A stretch of DNA of 59,248 nt from Myxococcales bacterium (GCA_023248875.1 JAHFDT010000003.1:1-59248); one strand, 5' to 3'. Positions 6,145 through 49,516 are shown, counted from the stretch's first letter. Numbers and translations: made by a program. The notes: a model not told the origin generated them from the letters alone.

Positions 6145-6184
6145 GGCATTAGCCTGTTAACTAGAAAATCTCTTGGAGGAGCTG

Positions 6185-7357
6185 GTGACCCAGAGTGAAG
6201 TCCAGGCCGCACACCACGAGATTCGCGCGTCGGTGCGGGAATTCGTCGAGCGGGAAGTCCTCCCCATTTGTGACGAGCTCGACAACCGCGATCAGGAGAT
6301 CCCGCTTTCGGTCATCGGCAAGATGGCCGAGCTCGGCTACTTTGGCCTCATCTTCCCGCCGGAATACGGCGGCATGGGGCTCGATACGGCAGCGATGGCG
6401 ATCGTGACCGAAGAGCTCTCACGTGGTTGGCTTTCGGTGGGCAGTGTGATGACGCGCATGCTGATCACGGGCTCGCTTATCATGGCTCACGGCACCGAGG
6501 AGCAGAAGCGGCGCTTTCTGCCCAAGATCTGCTCGGGTGAACTACTGACCGCGGCCGCCTTTACCGAGCCCGACGTGGGCAGCGATACCGCCGCCATGAA
6601 GCTGCGCGCCGAGCGTCACGGCGATCGCTACCTTCTCACCGGTGAGAAGACCTGGTGCACCTTTGCCAACCGCGCCCATGTGCTCACAGTGCTCGCGCGC
6701 ACTCACGCCGACGCCAAGCCGAAGCACAAGGGGCTGTCTATTCTGCTGGTGGAGAAGATCCCCGGCGACAGTTTTGCGCCACCCGAGCTGGGGGGATCGC
6801 CCATCCCGACCATCGGCTACAAGGGGATGCGCTCCTATTCTCTCCAGTTCGACGGCTACGCCTGCCCCGCCGAAAATCTGCTCGGCGGTGAGGAGGGCAA
6901 GGGCTTTTACCAGCTGATGGCTACCTACGAATACGCGCGCATTCAGACTGCCGCGCGCGCGGTCGGCGTCGCTCAGGCCGCCTACGAAGCGGCCCTTGAC
7001 TATTCACGCGAGCGTGTTCAGTTCGACCAGCCGATCGCCTCCTTTCAGGTGATCCGACACAAGCTCGCCCACGCGGCGACCGAGATCGAAGCCGCCAGGA
7101 GGCTCTGCTACTACGCCGCGGAGATGAAGGACACGGGGAGGCGGTGCGATCTCGAGGCCGGCATGGCCAAGGTGTTCGCGGCCGAGATGGCGGAACGGGT
7201 AACCTCCGAAATGCTCCAGGTTTTCGGCGGATACGGCTACTCGCGCGAATACCCGGCGCAGCGCTTCTGGCGGGATGCGCGGGTCTTTCGCATTTTCGAA
7301 GGCACCTCCGAAATTCAATATGAAGTGATCGCCAGGAGGCTGATCGGAGACAAATGA
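6185..7357 (+). CDS. mcd: Acyl-CoA dehydrogenase, probable (2S)-methylsuccinyl-CoA dehydrogenase
   Basis: ACAD motifs FTEPDVGSD, FGGYGY, IFEGTSEIQ; Mcd-like IGYKGM and ARIQTAARAVGVAQ; context with mch and ccr. GTG start chosen for GGAGGA RBS (track uses TTG 6173). Confidence 0.8.
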   Translation: MTQSEVQAAHHEIRASVREFVEREVLPICDELDNRDQEIPLSVIGKMAELGYFGLIFPPEYGGMGLDTAAMAIVTEELSRGWLSVGSVMTRMLITGSLIMAHGTEEQKRRFLPKICSGELLTAAAFTEPDVGSDTAAMKLRAERHGDRYLLTGEKTWCTFANRAHVLTVLARTHADAKPKHKGLSILLVEKIPGDSFAPPELGGSPIPTIGYKGMRSYSLQFDGYACPAENLLGGEEGKGFYQLMATYEYARIQTAARAVGVAQAAYEAALDYSRERVQFDQPIASFQVIRHKLAHAATEIEAARRLCYYAAEMKDTGRRCDLEAGMAKVFAAEMAERVTSEMLQVFGGYGYSREYPAQRFWRDARVFRIFEGTSEIQYEVIARRLIGDK

Positions 7358-7407
7358 AGGTAAACGTTCACGGGGTGAGAAATGGAACGTTGTGATTTTG
7401 GGCACTT

Positions 7408-7482
7408 CCGCGCGGTCCTCGCGCGGTGGGGGGGCGGCTCGACGAGCTTTGCTCGTCGAGGGGGGGACGGGAAAGTCCCCCC
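7408..7482. repeat. Three-hairpin intergenic element, copy 1
   Basis: CCGCGCG-N5-CGCGCGG (7408-7426), CTCGACGAGC-TTT-GCTCGTCGAG (7438-7460), GGGGGGAC-GGGAAA-GTCCCCCC (7461-7482); homologous to 45732-45803. Confidence 0.85.
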
Positions 7483-7505
7483 TGTGAACGGAGACAAATA
7501 AAACA

Positions 7506-8594
7506 ATGAGCGTGCTGACCCCTCGCTACGGGCGCCTGCTCGGCGATTTTACCGTTGGTGCCACCTATCAGCATCCCTGGGAGGTGACGATCGACGAGGG
7601 CATGGTGGCGCTGTTTGCGGCCTCGTTCCAGGACGCTATGCCGCTGTTCGCTTCGAACGCCTTTGCTCAGGCGATGAACTTTCCCTCGCGGCCGCTCCAT
7701 CCGCTCCTGTGCCTCAACCTGGCGCTGTCCTTCTCGGTGCACGATGTTTCCGAACAGGCCATCGCGCATCTCGCCTACCTCGATGTCCGTTTTCCCGATG
7801 CCGGCTTTGTCGGCGATACGGTCACCGCACGCTCTACCGTCATCGACGTCAGAACTGCATCGAGCGGTGACAAGGGCGTCGTGCATGTGCGCACGGCGCT
7901 CGAAGAGACGAATGGCCGTGTGCTCTGCATCTTCGAACGGAAGGCGCTCATTCGCGCCGGCCACAGTGAATCCTCCCTGCTCGTCGCCTCGGATGCGTAC
8001 GCCGTGCCGCCGCTCGTTGAGGTGCACGAACTGCCGGTGGAGTTCGCCCGGGTTACACCGCCGCACCGGCCCGCCCGTTTTGGCCGCTACTGGGAGGATT
8101 TTTCAGTCGGTCAGACGTTCGCCCATGGCATCGGCCACACCATCGGCGAGAGCGAGCACATGCAGCTGACCACGATCCTTCGCAACAGCCATCCGCTCCA
8201 CTTTGATCAGCTCTACTGTGCCGACCACTCCTTCACCAAAGAGCGCGTGGTCTACGGCGGGCTGGTGTTCGCCTGGACGGCCGCAGCGAGCTCTCGCGAT
8301 CTTGCCGGCCAGGCGGTATGGGATCTGCAGTATCGCCAAGGAGCCCATCCGGCATCGGTGGCGGCGGGCGATACAATTTATGCAGCGTCGCGCATCCTCG
8401 CTCTCACGGATCGTGGAATGCTGGGTGCTGTGACAACGACGCTGGTGGGCCTCAAGAACATCACGGCGCGTGCGGCCGTCGAGCGCTATGGCGAGGCGCT
8501 GTTCGCAGAGGAGCTGTTGAAAAAGGAGCACAAGATCGGTGAAAAGGTGTTCGAAATTCAACGCACGATGCTGGTGCAAAAGAGGCCCGCGTAA
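7506..8594 (+). CDS. mch: Double MaoC/hotdog hydratase, probable mesaconyl-CoA hydratase
   Basis: Two MaoC-like halves (GRLLGDFTVG; GRYWEDFSVG...NSHPLHFD...VYGG); ethylmalonyl-CoA pathway context. Confidence 0.8.
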   Translation: MSVLTPRYGRLLGDFTVGATYQHPWEVTIDEGMVALFAASFQDAMPLFASNAFAQAMNFPSRPLHPLLCLNLALSFSVHDVSEQAIAHLAYLDVRFPDAGFVGDTVTARSTVIDVRTASSGDKGVVHVRTALEETNGRVLCIFERKALIRAGHSESSLLVASDAYAVPPLVEVHELPVEFARVTPPHRPARFGRYWEDFSVGQTFAHGIGHTIGESEHMQLTTILRNSHPLHFDQLYCADHSFTKERVVYGGLVFAWTAAASSRDLAGQAVWDLQYRQGAHPASVAAGDTIYAASRILALTDRGMLGAVTTTLVGLKNITARAAVERYGEALFAEELLKKEHKIGEKVFEIQRTMLVQKRPA

Positions 8595-24266: not shown

Positions 24267-24428
24267 TGTCCTGTCTCAGAAATTCGCGCCATATCTCGCC
24301 GGTCTCTTTCGTCCCTACCGTCGTTGCTCGTCGGTTAAATACCGCCAGTATTCACCCTCCTCGCGCCTCGGCAGGAACGAAACATCCTCGCCGATATATG
24401 GCGCGAATTTCTGAGACAGGACACTAGG
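24262..24428. mobile_element. MITE-like element with 33-bp perfect terminal inverted repeats
   Basis: CCTAGTGTCCTGTCTCAGAAATTCGCGCCATAT (24262-24294) and its exact reverse complement (24396-24428); CTAG at both ends; no transposase. Confidence 0.85.
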
Positions 24429-44055: not shown

Positions 44056-45705
44056 ATGGACCTTCGTCGACTGGGCGGAATGGCTGTCATTTTTGCACTG
44101 CTTCTTCCTGCGCTCGCGGATGCAAAAAAGAAGACCAAGCCGGAGGAGGGGGGCGAAACCATGACCTTCACGCCCGAGGAGACGGGCGCGGCCAAAGCCA
44201 AGCGGGCGGCGGTGATCGATGAGAAGGCGGCCGCGGGAACCGCTTCGAAGGTGCTCGATAGCGCCCTCAAGCTGTACGAGAAAGAGGACTACTATTCGGC
44301 CACCATCGGGTTGAACAAGGTGATGGAGGGTCAGACCACCGACGATGAGATCAATCGTCAGCGCGCCGAATTCTTTATGGGCAAGGCGCTCTTCAATATG
44401 GGCTACTACTCGGCGTCGCTCTCCTATTTCGACCGCATCGTCCAGCGGGGGGGCGAGCACCACTACTACGCCAAAACGCTGCAGTGGCTGGCATCGCTGT
44501 CGCAAAAGCTGCCCGAGTCGGCGGGCGTGCTCGATAAGATCGGCAAGTACACGCGCGAGGATCTCGACCAGCCGGCGCTCGAATCGGTGCGGGACCAGCT
44601 CTTTTTTCTACTGGGCCGCTACCACTACACGAAGGGCAATTTCAAAGAGGCGGTGGGGCTGTTTCAGGCGCTGCCCGAGGCGAGCGAATTCTACGCCCGC
44701 GCCAAGTTTTTCGAAGGCATCACCTACGTGCGCCAGTACCAGGCGCAGCCCGCTGCCGAGGCCTTCAAGGCGATCTTGCGCAAAGCCAAGGAGCACCCCG
44801 ATAAGGCCACCCAGGAGTTCGAGGAGCTGGCCAACATTTCCTTGGCGCGCACCTTTTATTCCCTATCGCAGTTCGACAAGGCGGTGAAGTATTTCGACCG
44901 TGTGCCGACCGAATCGGCCGACTGGTTGGCGTCGCTGTTCGAGTCGGCCTGGGCGCAGTTCCAGATCGACGGCGACTCGAAGGCGCTCGGCAATATCCAT
45001 TCGATCAACGCGCCATTTTTCGAGAACGAATTCTATCCCGAGTCGCTGATTTTGAAGGCGGTCATCTACTTCCAACGCTGCAACTACGAGCTGGCGATGG
45101 CGGCGGTGGCGGAGTTCAACGAGACCTATCCGGGGCTGAAGAAGGACATCGAAAAGGTAATCAACAAGTACCCGGACAACGCGGCTTTTTACAAGTATGT
45201 GCTCCGGATCCGCCGCGGCGAATCGGGGCTACCCGACCGTGTGCAGCGCGCGGCCGAGGGGGCGCTGTCGGACAAGACGCTGGTCAAGACGCTCGACTAT
45301 GTCGCCGAGCTCGACCGCGAGCTGCACCAGGTGGAGAAATCAGACCCGGCCTGGAAGTCGACGGCCATCGCTGGCAACATCTTGCAGGATCTGACGCTAC
45401 AGCAGTCCCTGGCGCAGAACGATGCCGGCACCATGGCACGTGATCGCCTCAAGCGGCTCTCGACGGAGATCCAGGAGCTGGTGAAGCAGGCGCTCAAGAT
45501 CGAGTACGAAACGCTGAATGCGCAAAAGGGCGTGCTGGAGGCGTCGCTGCGGAGCGAGCAGTCGGTCGCGAGCGGCACCGCGCGCAAGAATGCCGAGGTG
45601 GTCGCCGATGATGAGCACGAGAAGTGGCCCTTCGACGGCGAGTATTGGCAGGACGAGCTCGGGTACTATAAGTCCCGCATCGTCAACAAGTGCTCGGCCA
45701 AGTGA
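44056..45705 (+). CDS. gltC: Adventurous gliding motility TPR protein GltC-like
   Basis: Signal peptide, TPRs, C-terminal DDEHEKWPFDGEYWQDELGYY motif. Confidence 0.8.
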   Translation: MDLRRLGGMAVIFALLLPALADAKKKTKPEEGGETMTFTPEETGAAKAKRAAVIDEKAAAGTASKVLDSALKLYEKEDYYSATIGLNKVMEGQTTDDEINRQRAEFFMGKALFNMGYYSASLSYFDRIVQRGGEHHYYAKTLQWLASLSQKLPESAGVLDKIGKYTREDLDQPALESVRDQLFFLLGRYHYTKGNFKEAVGLFQALPEASEFYARAKFFEGITYVRQYQAQPAAEAFKAILRKAKEHPDKATQEFEELANISLARTFYSLSQFDKAVKYFDRVPTESADWLASLFESAWAQFQIDGDSKALGNIHSINAPFFENEFYPESLILKAVIYFQRCNYELAMAAVAEFNETYPGLKKDIEKVINKYPDNAAFYKYVLRIRRGESGLPDRVQRAAEGALSDKTLVKTLDYVAELDRELHQVEKSDPAWKSTAIAGNILQDLTLQQSLAQNDAGTMARDRLKRLSTEIQELVKQALKIEYETLNAQKGVLEASLRSEQSVASGTARKNAEVVADDEHEKWPFDGEYWQDELGYYKSRIVNKCSAK

Positions 45706-45731
45706 GGGCGCAGATGAAACTAGCGAAAACA

Positions 45732-45803
45732 CCGCGCGGGGAGCGCGCGGCAGGGGGAGGCTCGAGCGAGCTTGGATCGCTGGAGGGGGACGGGAAGGTC
45801 CCC
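45732..45803. repeat. Three-hairpin intergenic element, copy 2
   Basis: CCGCGCG-N5-CGCGCGG (45732-45750), imperfect CTCGAGCGA/TCGCTGGAG stem, GGGGAC-GGGAAG-GTCCCC (45786-45803). Confidence 0.85.
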
Positions 45804-45812
45804 GAGTATGCC

Positions 45813-45863
45813 GAGCTTGGGTACTACAAATCGCGCATCGTCAACAAGTGCTCGGCCAAGTGA
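45813..45863 (+). repeat. 51-bp duplicate of gltC 3' end (45655-45705)
   Basis: Encodes the same ELGYYKSRIVNKCSAK-stop; 47/51 identical, four third-position synonymous differences. Confidence 0.95.
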
Positions 45864-45877
45864 GAGGTTAGGTTCCG

Positions 45878-48800
45878 ATGAATCGAGTTGCCTTCGGGAG
45901 CACCCTTTTGTGGGTAGCCGTCGCCACCGCTGTTCCTCCTAAATACACCAAAAAAGAGGCGTCGGTGACGTCGCAGCAGACCGCGCTCACCAAGCCGGCG
46001 CAGCGGGCCAAAGAGGAAAAACAGCGGCCCACCATCGATGCTTCCGATGTATTCGGCGGCGTGGGTGAGCAGCTCAAAGCGGTCACAGATCAGCAGATCA
46101 AAGTGATGCAGCGCCTCATCGAGAACACCGGTGACGACGATCCGGAAAAGCCCGACTATCATTTCCGCATCGCGGAGCTCTACGCGCAGCAGGAGCACTA
46201 CTACAGCTTCCGCGCCCGCGAGCTCGACCAAAAGATCTTCGAAGCGGTGCAGGCGAACAAGGCGGCGGTGGCCGAGCAGTTCAAGAAGCAGCAGACCGAT
46301 TACGAAAACCGCGAGAAAACTTGGCTCAAGGCCGCGGTCAAGGAGTACCTGAAGGTCACCGAGAATCCCAAGTTCAATGGCTACAAGCGCATGGACGAGG
46401 TGCTGTTCTACCTCGCCTTTCTTTTGACGCAGCAGAAGCGCGAAGATCTGGCGCGACCGATCTTCAAGCGCCTCATCAAGGACTATCCCGATTCGAAGTA
46501 CATCCCCGATGCACTGCTCTCCTTCGGGGAGTACTACTTCGAGCAGAAGGACATCGAGAATGCGCTGCGTTTTTACGACAAGGTGCTGCAGTATCCGCAA
46601 TCGCGCGTCTTTGGCTACGCGCTCTATAAGAAGGGTTGGTGCTACCTCAACCTGCAGGACTTCAAATCGGCCCTGCAGATTTTCGAGAGGGTGATCCTCG
46701 AAACCAAAGTCGACAAGAAGGACACCAACAAGCTATCGCTTTTGAAAGAGGCGAAGAAGGATTCGGTGCGCGCCTACTCGCAGATTTCGTCGGCGCCGCC
46801 CGACAAGGCGTGGCCCTATTTTCAGCGCATCGGCGGCGATTTTGCGCCGACCATGCTCGAGCAGCTGGGGGAGCTCTACAACGCGCAGGGCAAATTCCCC
46901 GAGAGCATCGTGATCTATCGGCAGCTCATCAAGCTCAACCCCACTTCGCCCAAGCTCTGTTCGTGGCAGGAGGAGATCCTGCGCAACACACTGTCGAAGA
47001 CCGGTTCGCGCGCTACCCCCGAGGCGGTGCAGGAGCTCGAGCGCCTATCGGCGGTGCTGGAAAAGTTCAAGACCATGGCGGGCGTGAAGAGGGAGGCGGT
47101 CGAGGAGTGCCGCGATAACACCGCTGGCTCGCTGCGCGAGCTCGCGACGACCTGGCACAAAGAGGCGCAGAAGACCAACGTCAAGGAGACCTACGCGCTC
47201 GCCCAGTCGCTCTACAAGGAGTACATCACGAAGTTTCCCGAGGAGAAGGATGTCTACCCGATGACCTTCTACTACGGCGAACTCCTGTTCAAGTTGGAGA
47301 AGTTCTGCGATTCGGCGCCGGTCTATACCAACGTTGTCACGATGAACGGGGGCAACGACGCGCGCTATCGCAACGAGTCGGCCTACGCGGCGGTCATTTC
47401 GTGGAAGAACTGCCTCGCGGTTGACGACCAGGAGCATGTCGACGAGAGCCAGCGCAAGGGGGTGGTGAAGGACGTTCGCGACCAAAAGAAGGGCAAGGGC
47501 AAGGAGAAGGACCCGGAGAAGAGCCGGGCCGAGGAGCTGGCGAAGTTCAAGCCGCTCGAGATCCCGGAGAAGTGGCACAAGATGCTCGACGCCTTCGACA
47601 CCTACATCAAGTACGTGCCGAATTCTCCCGAGCTTCCGACCATCCGCTACCGTAAAGCGCGCGTTTTCTACGAATACAACCACTTCGAAGATGCGGCGAA
47701 GTTTTTCCGCGAGGTGGTCGAAAACCATCGCGATTCGGAGCTCGCGCCGGTAGCGGCCAACCTGCTTTTCGATTGCGATAACATTCTGCGGCAGGCGCAA
47801 AGCGGCACCTTTGAGCAGCTGCGCGGCGATACCAAGAAGTACTGCAGCTGGCCCGATCTCATCAAGGATGGCGACTTCGTCAAGCAGTGCGACACCATCA
47901 CGGCGAATCTGACCCGCATGGAGATCGAGGACTTCGAGCACAAGGGGGAAAAGGACATCAAGTACTATCGCAAGGCCGCCGATATGTACTGCAAGCTGGC
48001 GGAGGAGCACCCTGAAGACCCGAAGGTGGACGAGGTCTGGTACAACTGCGCGATCGATTACGAGCGCGCCAAGCAGCTTGGCAAGGCGATCGAAACGCGC
48101 ATCAAATTGATCAAGTTGAAGCCTGTCAGCATACTCGCGCAAAAGTCGGTCTTTTTCCTGGGGCGCGCCTACCGCGACATCGCCGCCTACGACAAGGCGG
48201 CGGAGCAGTTCGAGACCTTTGCCGTCAAGTATCCGGGGGAGAAGGCCAAGCCGGGCGACCGCAGTGCGCCCGACGCTGCGACCGCGCTCTATTCCGCGTC
48301 GATCTATCGGCGCGGCCTCGGCGAGGTGGAAAAGGCGGTCGAGGATGCTAAGAAGTTCGTCGATCTTTACGGCAATCGCGGTAAGGAGAACGAAGACAAG
48401 GCGGCGGGCGTCTTCTTTGGTCTGGCGCAGATCTATGAGCAGCAGAAGGATCGCGTGAAGCTGGCGAAGCATCTGAACGACTATCTGAAGGCCTGGGGGC
48501 AAAAGGGTGGCGCGGATCGACAGATCATCGCCAATGTGAAGCTGGGCGAGCTCGCCTGGGCCGATAGCTGCCCGGTGGCGGGGGTCAACGGCGCCTGCAT
48601 CGAGGTGACCCGCGTGCGTGCTTCGTCGGCGACGCGCGTGGCAGAAAGAGCGAGCAAGGGCAAGAAGGGCAAGAAGCTGAAGAAGAAGGGCGCGGTGCTG
48701 CCGGCGCAGTGCGGGCCGGAGACCAAATCGAAGATCACGCTGCATGAGCGCAAGCCGGCGCTGATCAAGCAGGCGCAGGACTACTTTGCTGCAGCGATGA

Positions 48801-49516
48801 AGGAGTATGCGAACGGCGCGGCAGTGAAGAAGATCCCCGGCAAAGACGAGGCGGAGCGGGCGGCGCGGGCCGATTCGATGATGTACTACGTGGCCGAGGC
48901 GCGCTCGATGGAGGGCAATCGGGAGTATGAGAAGCTGATTGGAATGAAGATCCCGGACAAGCTCGACTTTACGCCCGTCGATGTCAGCGCGTCGAAGGCC
49001 AAGCAGGCCAAGGACAAGAAGCGGCTCGACGACAACAGCAAGAAGTTTAAGACCTGGTACGAGACCAAGATCAAGCAGGTCGATACGGCGCAGAAGATCT
49101 ACCAGCAGGTGATTCTGTTCAAGCAGGCCCACTGGGCGATCGCAGCGGCGGCACGAATCGGTCAGATCTTCCAGGACTTCTCGGGTCAGCTCTACACTGC
49201 ACCGGTGCCGAAGGCAGGCAAGGCGCCGGAGGGGATGTCGCAGGAGGAGTTCGACCAACTCTTCCATGACTCCTACTGCGACCAGATGACCGATACCGCC
49301 GAGCCGCTCGAGACCAAGGCGGTTGAGGGGCTTTCGACCTGTCTCAAGAAGTCGACCGACCTGCAGTGGTTCAACGAGTGGTCGGCGCTGTGCGAGGCGG
49401 AGCTCAACCAGATCAAGCCGCAGGAGTACCCGCTCGCGTCGGAGATCCGCGGCGTGCCTGGCTACTTCGATAAACGGCCCGATTCGGCGTCCTTGATTAC
49501 GGAGCTCAAACAATGA
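45878..49516 (+). CDS. gltD: Large periplasmic TPR gliding protein GltD/AgmU-like
   Basis: 1212 aa, signal peptide, many TPRs, C-terminal WAIAAAARIG...EPLE.KA...FNEWS; upstream of gltE/F/G-like genes. Confidence 0.8.
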   Translation: MNRVAFGSTLLWVAVATAVPPKYTKKEASVTSQQTALTKPAQRAKEEKQRPTIDASDVFGGVGEQLKAVTDQQIKVMQRLIENTGDDDPEKPDYHFRIAELYAQQEHYYSFRARELDQKIFEAVQANKAAVAEQFKKQQTDYENREKTWLKAAVKEYLKVTENPKFNGYKRMDEVLFYLAFLLTQQKREDLARPIFKRLIKDYPDSKYIPDALLSFGEYYFEQKDIENALRFYDKVLQYPQSRVFGYALYKKGWCYLNLQDFKSALQIFERVILETKVDKKDTNKLSLLKEAKKDSVRAYSQISSAPPDKAWPYFQRIGGDFAPTMLEQLGELYNAQGKFPESIVIYRQLIKLNPTSPKLCSWQEEILRNTLSKTGSRATPEAVQELERLSAVLEKFKTMAGVKREAVEECRDNTAGSLRELATTWHKEAQKTNVKETYALAQSLYKEYITKFPEEKDVYPMTFYYGELLFKLEKFCDSAPVYTNVVTMNGGNDARYRNESAYAAVISWKNCLAVDDQEHVDESQRKGVVKDVRDQKKGKGKEKDPEKSRAEELAKFKPLEIPEKWHKMLDAFDTYIKYVPNSPELPTIRYRKARVFYEYNHFEDAAKFFREVVENHRDSELAPVAANLLFDCDNILRQAQSGTFEQLRGDTKKYCSWPDLIKDGDFVKQCDTITANLTRMEIEDFEHKGEKDIKYYRKAADMYCKLAEEHPEDPKVDEVWYNCAIDYERAKQLGKAIETRIKLIKLKPVSILAQKSVFFLGRAYRDIAAYDKAAEQFETFAVKYPGEKAKPGDRSAPDAATALYSASIYRRGLGEVEKAVEDAKKFVDLYGNRGKENEDKAAGVFFGLAQIYEQQKDRVKLAKHLNDYLKAWGQKGGADRQIIANVKLGELAWADSCPVAGVNGACIEVTRVRASSATRVAERASKGKKGKKLKKKGAVLPAQCGPETKSKITLHERKPALIKQAQDYFAAAMKEYANGAAVKKIPGKDEAERAARADSMMYYVAEARSMEGNREYEKLIGMKIPDKLDFTPVDVSASKAKQAKDKKRLDDNSKKFKTWYETKIKQVDTAQKIYQQVILFKQAHWAIAAAARIGQIFQDFSGQLYTAPVPKAGKAPEGMSQEEFDQLFHDSYCDQMTDTAEPLETKAVEGLSTCLKKSTDLQWFNEWSALCEAELNQIKPQEYPLASEIRGVPGYFDKRPDSASLITELKQ

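Follow-up and report, generated by a model that had tools for sequence, protein, structure and literature searches.

A three-hairpin repeat element of myxobacteria is at many loci flanked by locus-specific duplications of gene ends whose differences are mostly silent

In the DNA of a Myxococcales bacterium, the 3′ end of a GltC-like gene is present twice on one strand: once as the end of the working gene, and once as an orphan fragment on the far side of a small insert. The two copies of this gene end differ from each other at silent positions only. How did the end of a gene come to be duplicated around such an insert, and how has the copy that no longer ends a gene kept the appearance of a coding sequence? 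The initial annotation of this DNA proposed that the insert had arrived together with a replacement gene end from another allele, as integrative elements do at att sites. The reading put forward here is that the repeat is the target duplication of a non-autonomous element of about 105 nt, and that one of the two copies has since been exchanged with a coding allele. This reading is held with middling confidence, i.e., it may well be right and may equally well be wrong. The features of the window (the whole stretch of DNA that was analysed, 59,248 nucleotides) that bear on these questions are collected in Table 1.

Table 1. Positions of the two element copies, their flanking repeats and the neighbouring reading frames in the window
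Feature	Position	Strand	Remarks
Upstream ORF at the second locus (‘mcd’ in the initial annotation)	6173..7357	+	ORF
mcd repeat copy 1	7345..7358	+	last codons, TGA stop, 1 extra base
Second element copy	7359..7488	+	longer left arm; partial inverted repeat at ends
mcd repeat copy 2	7489..7502	+	TAA stop 7499-7501; 4 nt before next ATG at 7506
GltC-like TPR gene	44056..45705	+	ORF, predicted start; last 17 codons and stop inside copy 1
gltC repeat copy 1	45654..45706	+	working gltC 3′ end, TGA stop, 1 extra base
57-codon predicted ORF	45690..45863	+	crosses element in copy-2 frame, ends at copy-2 stop
Element left arm	45707..45731	+	ends in the family's A-rich stretch before hairpin 1
Hairpin 1	45732..45750	+	7-bp CG-rich stem; 99.4% of cells paired in 76 copies
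Hairpin 2	45761..45785	+	sequence variable between copies, structure kept; compensatory changes
Hairpin 3	45786..45803	+	most conserved 18-mer; pattern for the collection scan
Element tail	45804..45811	+	diverged from family consensus ending GATCGA
gltC repeat copy 2	45812..45864	+	orphan gltC end, joined to native 14-nt spacer and next gene start
Next operon gene, 1212-aa TPR protein	45878..49516	+	TPR/YbgF-type matches only

The ORF that ends in copy 1 of the longer repeat matches the NCBIfam model NF033756 (gliding_GltC) with an E value of 5e-104 and 349 bits, which is under the curated cut-off of 450, and its protein has 943 homologues at E ≤ 1e-20, the nearest of which is 77% identical. 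When read in the frame that the GC3 of the flank indicates, each copy of the repeat encodes the peptide ELGYYKSRIVNKCSAK followed by a stop. The motif EYW.DELGYY and the NKC end recur among the best 40 of the 943 homologues, which identifies this peptide as the native, conserved C-terminus of family members. The initial annotation had pointed to 17 gltC codons repeated 158 bp downstream, and this is indeed what is found: a direct repeat of 53 nt with 49 identical positions and four mismatches, the starts of the two copies being 158 nt apart. It is the sole long close-range repeat in the whole window, with a score of 43 as compared with a maximum of 20.5 in about 300 mismatched pairs of upstream and downstream flanks from other loci. 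The reading frame of gltC is completed by copy 1, and the native spacer and the ATG of the next gene adjoin copy 2. The product of this next gene may be GltD/AgmU, which its position would fit.

The four differences between copy 1 and copy 2 of the gltC end (CTC/CTT, TAT/TAC, AAG/AAA and TCC/TCG, respectively) are all at third positions and synonymous in the GltC frame, as had been claimed. Four silent differences out of four have P ~0.002 for unconstrained sequence (with a per-site synonymous probability of 0.22), and P ~0.02 for one copy that is purified and another that is neutral.

The insert between the two copies of the gltC end (45707–45811, 105 nt) folds into three hairpins, and its left arm bears no relation to what comes after copy 2. 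Rfam gave no matches in the whole window at gathering thresholds and, at permissive thresholds, chance-level matches only (E ≥ 1.7) in the region 45600–45900; blastn against a plasmid collection gave no match to the element. A covariance model built from the family (R1) finds just two copies in the window, with 70.7 and 54.2 bits. The higher score (E 1e-12, 7404–7492) belongs to the second copy at the mcd locus, which the initial annotation had put forward as a parallel case. The parallel exists and points to the same kind of cause, with a repeat much shorter than that at gltC: it is 14 nt long, and the sole difference between its copies is in the stop codon (TGA versus TAA).

These two copies belong to a larger family. 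An exact hairpin-3 pattern, scanned against a collection with one genome per species, gave at least 125 matches in at least 117 loci in addition to the two matches in the window. Among the 127 matches listed (two of which are those in the window), 85 are accompanied by the hairpin-1 motif where it would be expected; matches from other phyla are not part of a full element and resemble chance occurrences; and the element-bearing loci among them are all in MAGs labelled as Kofleriaceae, Haliangiales, Polyangia, Myxococcales or ‘Deltaproteobacteria’. The element family is a set of dispersed, structured repeats that is widespread in one myxobacterial group (Polyangia/Haliangiales-type). No description of it was found in full-text searches of the open literature.

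The matches listed include 76 distinct copies of the element, which were aligned. Hairpins 1 and 3 are conserved in sequence across the 76 copies, the invariance of hairpin 3 in this alignment being due to the copies having been found by means of the hairpin-3 pattern. Hairpin 2 has compensatory double changes in six of its seven pairs, with 163 compensatory cells as compared with 61 ± 5 after shuffling (0 of 500 shuffles were as high), and slid controls for this covariation had far lower scores. The element has two subtypes, and both copies in the window are of the ‘GGGAGG’ subtype. At L069, L067, L027 and L105 the element is arrayed in tandem, with a period of about 84 nt.

Flanks of 2 kb were examined around the loci (300 nt only for L081–L117). 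In the 30 units for which both flanks were called, the neighbouring genes are convergent in 13, co-directional in 17 and divergent in none. When the 514 ORFs in the flanks were clustered in search of a linked mobilising gene, no recurrent family was found save one that is present in four loci, and no transposase, reverse transcriptase or recombinase linked to the element emerged from this clustering. The absence of an integrase beside the element, which the initial annotation had remarked upon, was thereby confirmed among the flank ORFs of the fetched loci. General terminal inverted repeats were sought by comparing the reverse complement of the tail with the 160 nt upstream, and the matches were no better than those in mismatched-pair controls (best 12 of 16 positions; 99th percentile of the null, 12). 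A partial inverted repeat is listed only for the mcd copy in the window and for L052, and L057 was added by eye from its left arm. The consensus of the tail fades after about 10 nt, which leaves unsupported the idea that the tail shares microhomology with the beginning of the repeat.

There are also ORFs that cross the element and end at the stop of copy 2 (45690–45863 and 7382–7501 in the window, and one in L057). A coding insert with a fixed frame was considered and rejected, as the reading phases relative to hairpin 3 are 8, 4 and 1. The element is nearly free of stop codons in any frame, and so the ORFs that run through it may be incidental. The spacing of the two repeat copies is a multiple of three in 4 of 17 cases.

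Repeats flanking the element were sought at the other loci by comparing the 120 nt upstream of hairpin 1 with the 120 nt downstream of hairpin 3. Of 68 testable units, 20 have flanking repeats that score above the 99th percentile of mismatched-pair controls (from these, L020, L027 and the second L093 pair were set aside as chance or element-internal matches), and a restricted search gave 22 of the 68 at a score that is reached by 3% of control pairs. A detectable flanking repeat is absent from 48 of the 68 units. When wider flanks are taken, the repeats are between 13 and 104 nt long. In nine loci the repeats are perfect: L077 (104 nt), L060 (101 nt), L014 (85 nt), L036 (51 nt), L022 (42 nt), L093 (40 nt), L007 (24 nt), L083 (21 nt) and L066 (17 nt). 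The perfect duplications in L060, L077 and L083 are presumably recent. The idea that the left arm of the element is a continuation of the duplication was tried as well, and holds only for L063 and L014, plus 7 nt in L036; at the other loci the left arm has nothing in common with the sequence beyond copy 2.

The DNA that is repeated is a different local sequence at each locus. As the repeats are locus-specific and identical in nine loci, it follows that they were copied from the recipient's local target at the time of insertion and were not imported, which contradicts the proposal that the element brought a replacement gene end with it. According to that proposal, a site-specific integration would have introduced the gene end of the donor, as e14 does at icd, and the layout is indeed similar, with a working gene end, an element and an orphan C-terminal fragment with silent differences. 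However, identical, locus-specific flanking repeats and the lack of any recombinase among the flank ORFs led to the rejection of an att-type import; in addition, an element of 105 nt is too small to carry the ends of many genes, there is no integrase among the flank ORFs, and the length of the repeat varies from 13 to 104 nt. Such an import is therefore very improbable.

Where does the repeat end in relation to the neighbouring genes? In all 15 same-strand cases, inspected by eye, it ends between −7 and +6 nt from the stop codon of the left gene, and at four loci (L038, L115, L036 and L014) the 5′ end of an opposite-strand gene lies inside the repeat. The repeats of L077 and L083, perfect in other respects, break off within the stop codon, which bases of the left arm then complete to a stop other than the native one (TGA versus TAG in L077; TAA versus TAG in L083). 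In L008, as at mcd, the stop codon differs between the copies (TGA versus TAA), and at two loci, L057 and L085, the working copy is longer or shorter by one codon than the native end. The repeat nearly always reaches the end of the left-hand ORF, and therefore the left gene stays whole; the right-hand gene keeps its native leader and upstream context by way of copy 2. The position of the repeat boundary at the gene end may be a consequence of the mechanism, or may merely reflect the survival of those insertions that do no harm. Selection alone would not obviously bar repeats from extending further to the right, and this weighs against the main reading: the stop at the ORF boundary, which is seen even in L060, L077 and L083, is not readily explained by selection alone.

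The initial annotation had recommended a search for further gene-end duplications with silent variants beside the element, and had suggested that both versions of the gltC end had been under coding selection. Among the repeats described above there are nine diverged pairs, in which 19 of 21 differences are synonymous in the frame of the flanking gene (frames based on GC3). These are (silent/total) the gltC end in the window (4/4), L104 (2/2), L085 (4/4, including an AGA/CGC arginine pair), L038 (5/6), L051 (1/1), L008 (1/1), L057 (1/1), L088 (1/1) and L063 (0/1). Left out of the 19 of 21 are stop-codon differences, mcd, L052 (the frame of which is unclear) and three spurious pairs; L020, if it were a real pair, would add four non-silent differences. 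With the inclusion of L115 (three silent differences, frame set by eye) and L010 (one non-silent difference), 22 of 25 are silent, and the three that are non-silent are Q/P in L038, E/D at the edge of the repeat in L063, and K/E in the orphan copy of L010. In simulations, 19 of 21 silent differences has a probability below 1 in 200,000 without any constraint, and at least 19 of 21 has P ~5e-6 under purifying selection on the working copy with free drift of the orphan. The silent pattern thus recurs at other copies of the element and is no fluke, and both copies of the gene end bear the mark of coding selection.

With such an excess, the differences can hardly stem from neutral decay of a duplicated end, or from targeted mutagenesis such as that carried out by diversity-generating retroelements (DGRs). 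Some divergence after insertion is to be expected, and the orphan copy in L010 does have one non-silent change, but the probability just given for a drifting orphan speaks against decay. As for DGR-type mutagenesis, the bases of copy 2 that differ at gltC are T, C, A and G, i.e., the differences are not specific for adenines, and no reverse transcriptase family is recurrent among the flank ORFs of the fetched loci (in the window, the three ORFs scanned near the gltC repeat are GltC-like, TPR and CoA-transferase-like); it was rejected on these two grounds.

The mismatches are crowded towards one end of the repeat. At gltC, all four are within the first 22 of 53 nt (positions 6–21); in L038, all six are within the last 31 of 103 nt (positions 72–90); and in L104, both are within the last 19 of 63 nt (positions 44 and 53). 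The clustering in these three loci, combined by Fisher's method, has P ~0.002.

For the long repeats, including that of gltC, recombination with a diverged coding allele is the preferred reading, and from the observations above we infer an insertion step and a recombination step as follows. An activity provided in trans would insert the element and, in so doing, duplicate local target DNA over a considerable and variable length (13–104 nt as seen in the flanking repeats). The copies that survive would be those in which the duplication spans from inside the left gene to the boundary of that gene, such that the left gene would be complete through copy 1 and the native upstream context of the right gene would be kept through copy 2. 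The two copies would be identical at the start, and the four silent differences at gltC would arise later, when, through homologous recombination, a diverged allele that is still coding would take the place of the element-distal portion of one copy. This allele could be donated by relatives that are free of the element, or the exchange could accompany a transfer of the element, together with its flanks, from one lineage to another. As homology stops at the element, recombination tracts would end inside the repeat, and the part that is replaced would be the element-distal one. It is hard for this reading that in the short repeats of L008 (18 nt), L115 (18 nt) and mcd (14 nt) the silent differences lie a few bases from the element, i.e., that a recombination tract would have to end so near to it. 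Further points against the main reading are the lack of a linked transposase, reverse transcriptase or recombinase among the flank ORFs, the general absence of terminal inverted repeats, the 48 of 68 units with no flanking repeat, the three non-silent differences, and the origin of all examples in metagenome assemblies.

Silent excess is present even in short repeats beside the element, which favours a doubtful but distinct explanation, namely that the orphan is subject to indirect coding selection. Conversion or deletion between the repeats would feed the sequence of copy 2 into the working gene end; non-silent changes in the orphan would then be a fitness load, and very large populations would keep copy 2 ‘coding’. 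In the account of e14 in PMC13626634, excision fuses icd and the orphan icdC fragment into a working gene. Also in favour are the orthologous junctions L010 and L066 (with flanks that are about 71% identical), both of which carry the element: the 65-nt copies in L010 are identical to each other at 64 of 65 positions and have many differences from L066, which fits concerted evolution, although L010 and L066 may be independent insertions. Against indirect selection, the clustering of mismatches at one end of the repeat is not predicted by it, and repeats of 14–18 nt are too short for efficient RecA-type conversion.

Every example of a repeat flanking the element comes from a metagenome assembly, and a strain-chimeric assembly has therefore to be considered. 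In this case the copies in the true strain would be identical, the left flank and the first 22 nt of copy 1 would be derived from a diverged strain, and the ‘silent differences’ at gltC would be ordinary polymorphisms between strains. With its 59,248 bases the window spans one contig from end to end and is probably metagenomic, and the other examples are all in MAGs. The last 31 nt of copy 1, which lie beside the element, equal copy 2, and it is there that a small-k graph or bubble popping could switch haplotype; the same layout, on the copy-2 side, is found in L104, L038 and, marginally, L085. However, in L008, L115, L057, L088, L051 and mcd there are variant sites less than 21 nt from both junctions, which k-mer chimerism cannot produce and which have the same silent bias. 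Furthermore, four differences in 22 nt would imply strains that are too diverged for assemblers to merge often, and the pattern recurs across contigs whose names suggest several different assemblers. At gltC itself, chimerism may still be the source of the differences, though this is unlikely.

A broader reading, which is offered tentatively and is probably not correct, is that this is a previously undescribed small mobile element, the insertion of which is anchored at an ORF boundary and copies a long, variable stretch of the adjoining gene. The copying would proceed, for instance, by break-induced template switching or by target-primed synthesis, without a classical transposase. If this were true, the insertions would be ‘scarless’ for both neighbours and precisely reversible, and recombination with the working copy would preserve the coding state of the orphan fragment.

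What would the duplication of gene ends mean for the genomes concerned? A long target duplication restores the end of the gene that was interrupted and preserves the native leader of the next gene, and a small repeat can in this manner spread through tightly packed operons without breaking genes, those hit here being a gliding-motility cluster and a metabolic operon. The orphan ends with silent differences only are a natural test of whether recombination can keep non-functional copies ‘coding’. In practical terms, orphan gene ends should alert users of MAG assemblies to possible strain chimerism, and also call for caution with gene callers, by which small ORFs that cross the element may be annotated wrongly. 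Rfam does not contain the family, the addition of which would improve the annotation of Polyangia and Haliangiales genomes.

Several known kinds of element were compared with the one described here, and three can be set aside. It is not a classical DDE-type MITE, as there are no terminal inverted repeats and no fixed length of duplication (13–104 nt). An integrative element that replaces a gene end at an att site is rejected on account of the locus-specific repeats and the lack of a nearby recombinase, and a DGR with its TR/VR pair is rejected because the differences involve T, C, A and G and no reverse transcriptase family is recurrent. MIRUs, too, are small and lie between the genes of operons, and they contain short ORFs that overlap the neighbouring genes at their stop and start codons. 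The ORFs that cross the element here and end at the stop of copy 2 are reminiscent of this, but there is no fixed reading phase, it is the hairpins and not a peptide that are conserved, and the sequences are unrelated.

A further comparison is with the REP, BIME and REPIN elements of proteobacteria, which are described in PMC2817692 and PMC3116915 as short, structured, extragenic palindromic repeats in many copies; they are placed behind genes or within operons, can form tandem arrays and code for no enzyme. REP-type elements may have a RAYT (Y1 transposase) gene flanked by the repeats as a partner, whereas no protein family is generally recurrent in the 2-kb flanks of the element described here. 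This element is likewise short, structured, extragenic and present in many copies, is located after gene ends or in operons, is sometimes in tandem, and has no enzyme of its own; extragenic palindromes downstream of genes were found as 76 distinct three-hairpin copies among the matches listed. The sequences are unrelated, there is no match to any Rfam family, and 13–104 nt of the target are duplicated here, whereas we know of no target duplications created by elements of the REP type.

Long direct repeats of the target with variable length, as found here, have their closest precedent in IS1549 and IS1634, which generate direct repeats of 8–514 bp on insertion, for which, according to PMC2266710, no model has been proposed. 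These insertion sequences are 1.5–2 kb long and have a DDE transposase and terminal inverted repeats, whereas the element described here is about 105 nt long, with no general inverted terminal repeats and no linked transposase in the flank ORFs. It is thus a second and very different setting for these unexplained duplications. The layout of working gene end, element and orphan C-terminal fragment is that of e14 at icd/icdC in E. coli K-12, where, in the description given in PMC13626634, most of the changes between the copies are conservative or silent, and excision results in a functional chimera. However, e14, a prophage of 15 kb, encodes a site-specific recombinase, uses a fixed att site and brings along the replacement end, whereas the repeat of the element described here is copied from each local target. 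This element is a repeat of the small non-autonomous kind, which shares features with several of the families compared and falls within the full definition of none of them.

Promoter-side intergenic regions are avoided by the element. Orientation was counted for 68 element units (those of the collected loci together with those in the window), in 30 of which both flanking genes could be called; the element lay between co-directional genes in 17 and between convergent genes in 13, and between divergent genes in none of the 30. There are hints that the strand which folds is the given strand, as RNA or as single-stranded DNA: hairpin 1 contains U-G and G-U pairs on that strand at columns 5/24 and 7/22 of A2, the alignment of 76 distinct copies (24/76 and 4/76 copies), and these would be C-A mismatches on the complementary strand. 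On the minus strand at the gltC locus, a short run rich in T comes after hairpin 1, and the site has a terminator-like score in a simple scan, which found 2 sites against 0.4 expected.

At both loci in the window, a small open reading frame (ORF) starts inside or just past copy 1 of the flanking repeat, reads through the entire element and terminates at the copy 2 stop codon, which lies a few bases upstream of the start of the next gene. At L057, a locus elsewhere, such an ORF overlaps the next gene by ATGA. These ORFs might keep translational coupling, or may be a mere consequence of an element without stop codons.

The left arm of the mcd-locus element is extended, and the start of this arm forms a partial inverted repeat with the tail that follows hairpin 3. 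The same ends were found in L052, by comparing the reverse complement of the tail with the upstream sequence, and, by eye in the printed left arm, in L057; they are missing from most copies. At L036, 60 nt of left arm separate copy 1 from hairpin 1, and a short piece of this arm, judged by eye only, is similar to the DNA immediately upstream of copy 1 and looks like templated filler.

At one further place in the window, the element model matches weakly over its full length (12.6 bits, E 0.44), probably by chance.

Features by position
Feature	Sequence	Position	Strand
mcd-locus element	window	7359-7488	
Start of its left arm	window	~7364-7376	
Its post-hairpin-3 tail	window	~7477-7489	
ORF, 39 codons	window	7382-7501	
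ORF, 57 codons	window	45690-45863	
Terminator-like site	window	45730-45752	minus
Weak model match	window	24303-24410	minus
Element array	L069	8-193	
Element array	L067	2001-2102	
Element array	L027	2001-2103	
Element arrays	L105, L111, L093		

In contigs of Kofleriaceae-type MAGs, the element occurs in head-to-tail arrays that repeat every ~84 nt. Two pairs of loci from different species, L010 with L066 and L001 with L064, have the element at an orthologous gene junction, with flanks that are ~71% and ~83% identical, respectively. The lengths of the flanking repeats at orthologous junctions are unequal (65 nt at L010 vs 17 nt at L066), and the hairpin 2 sequences of these elements are separated by compensatory changes. 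Either these insertions are ancient and have undergone concerted evolution, or the same junction has been hit repeatedly.
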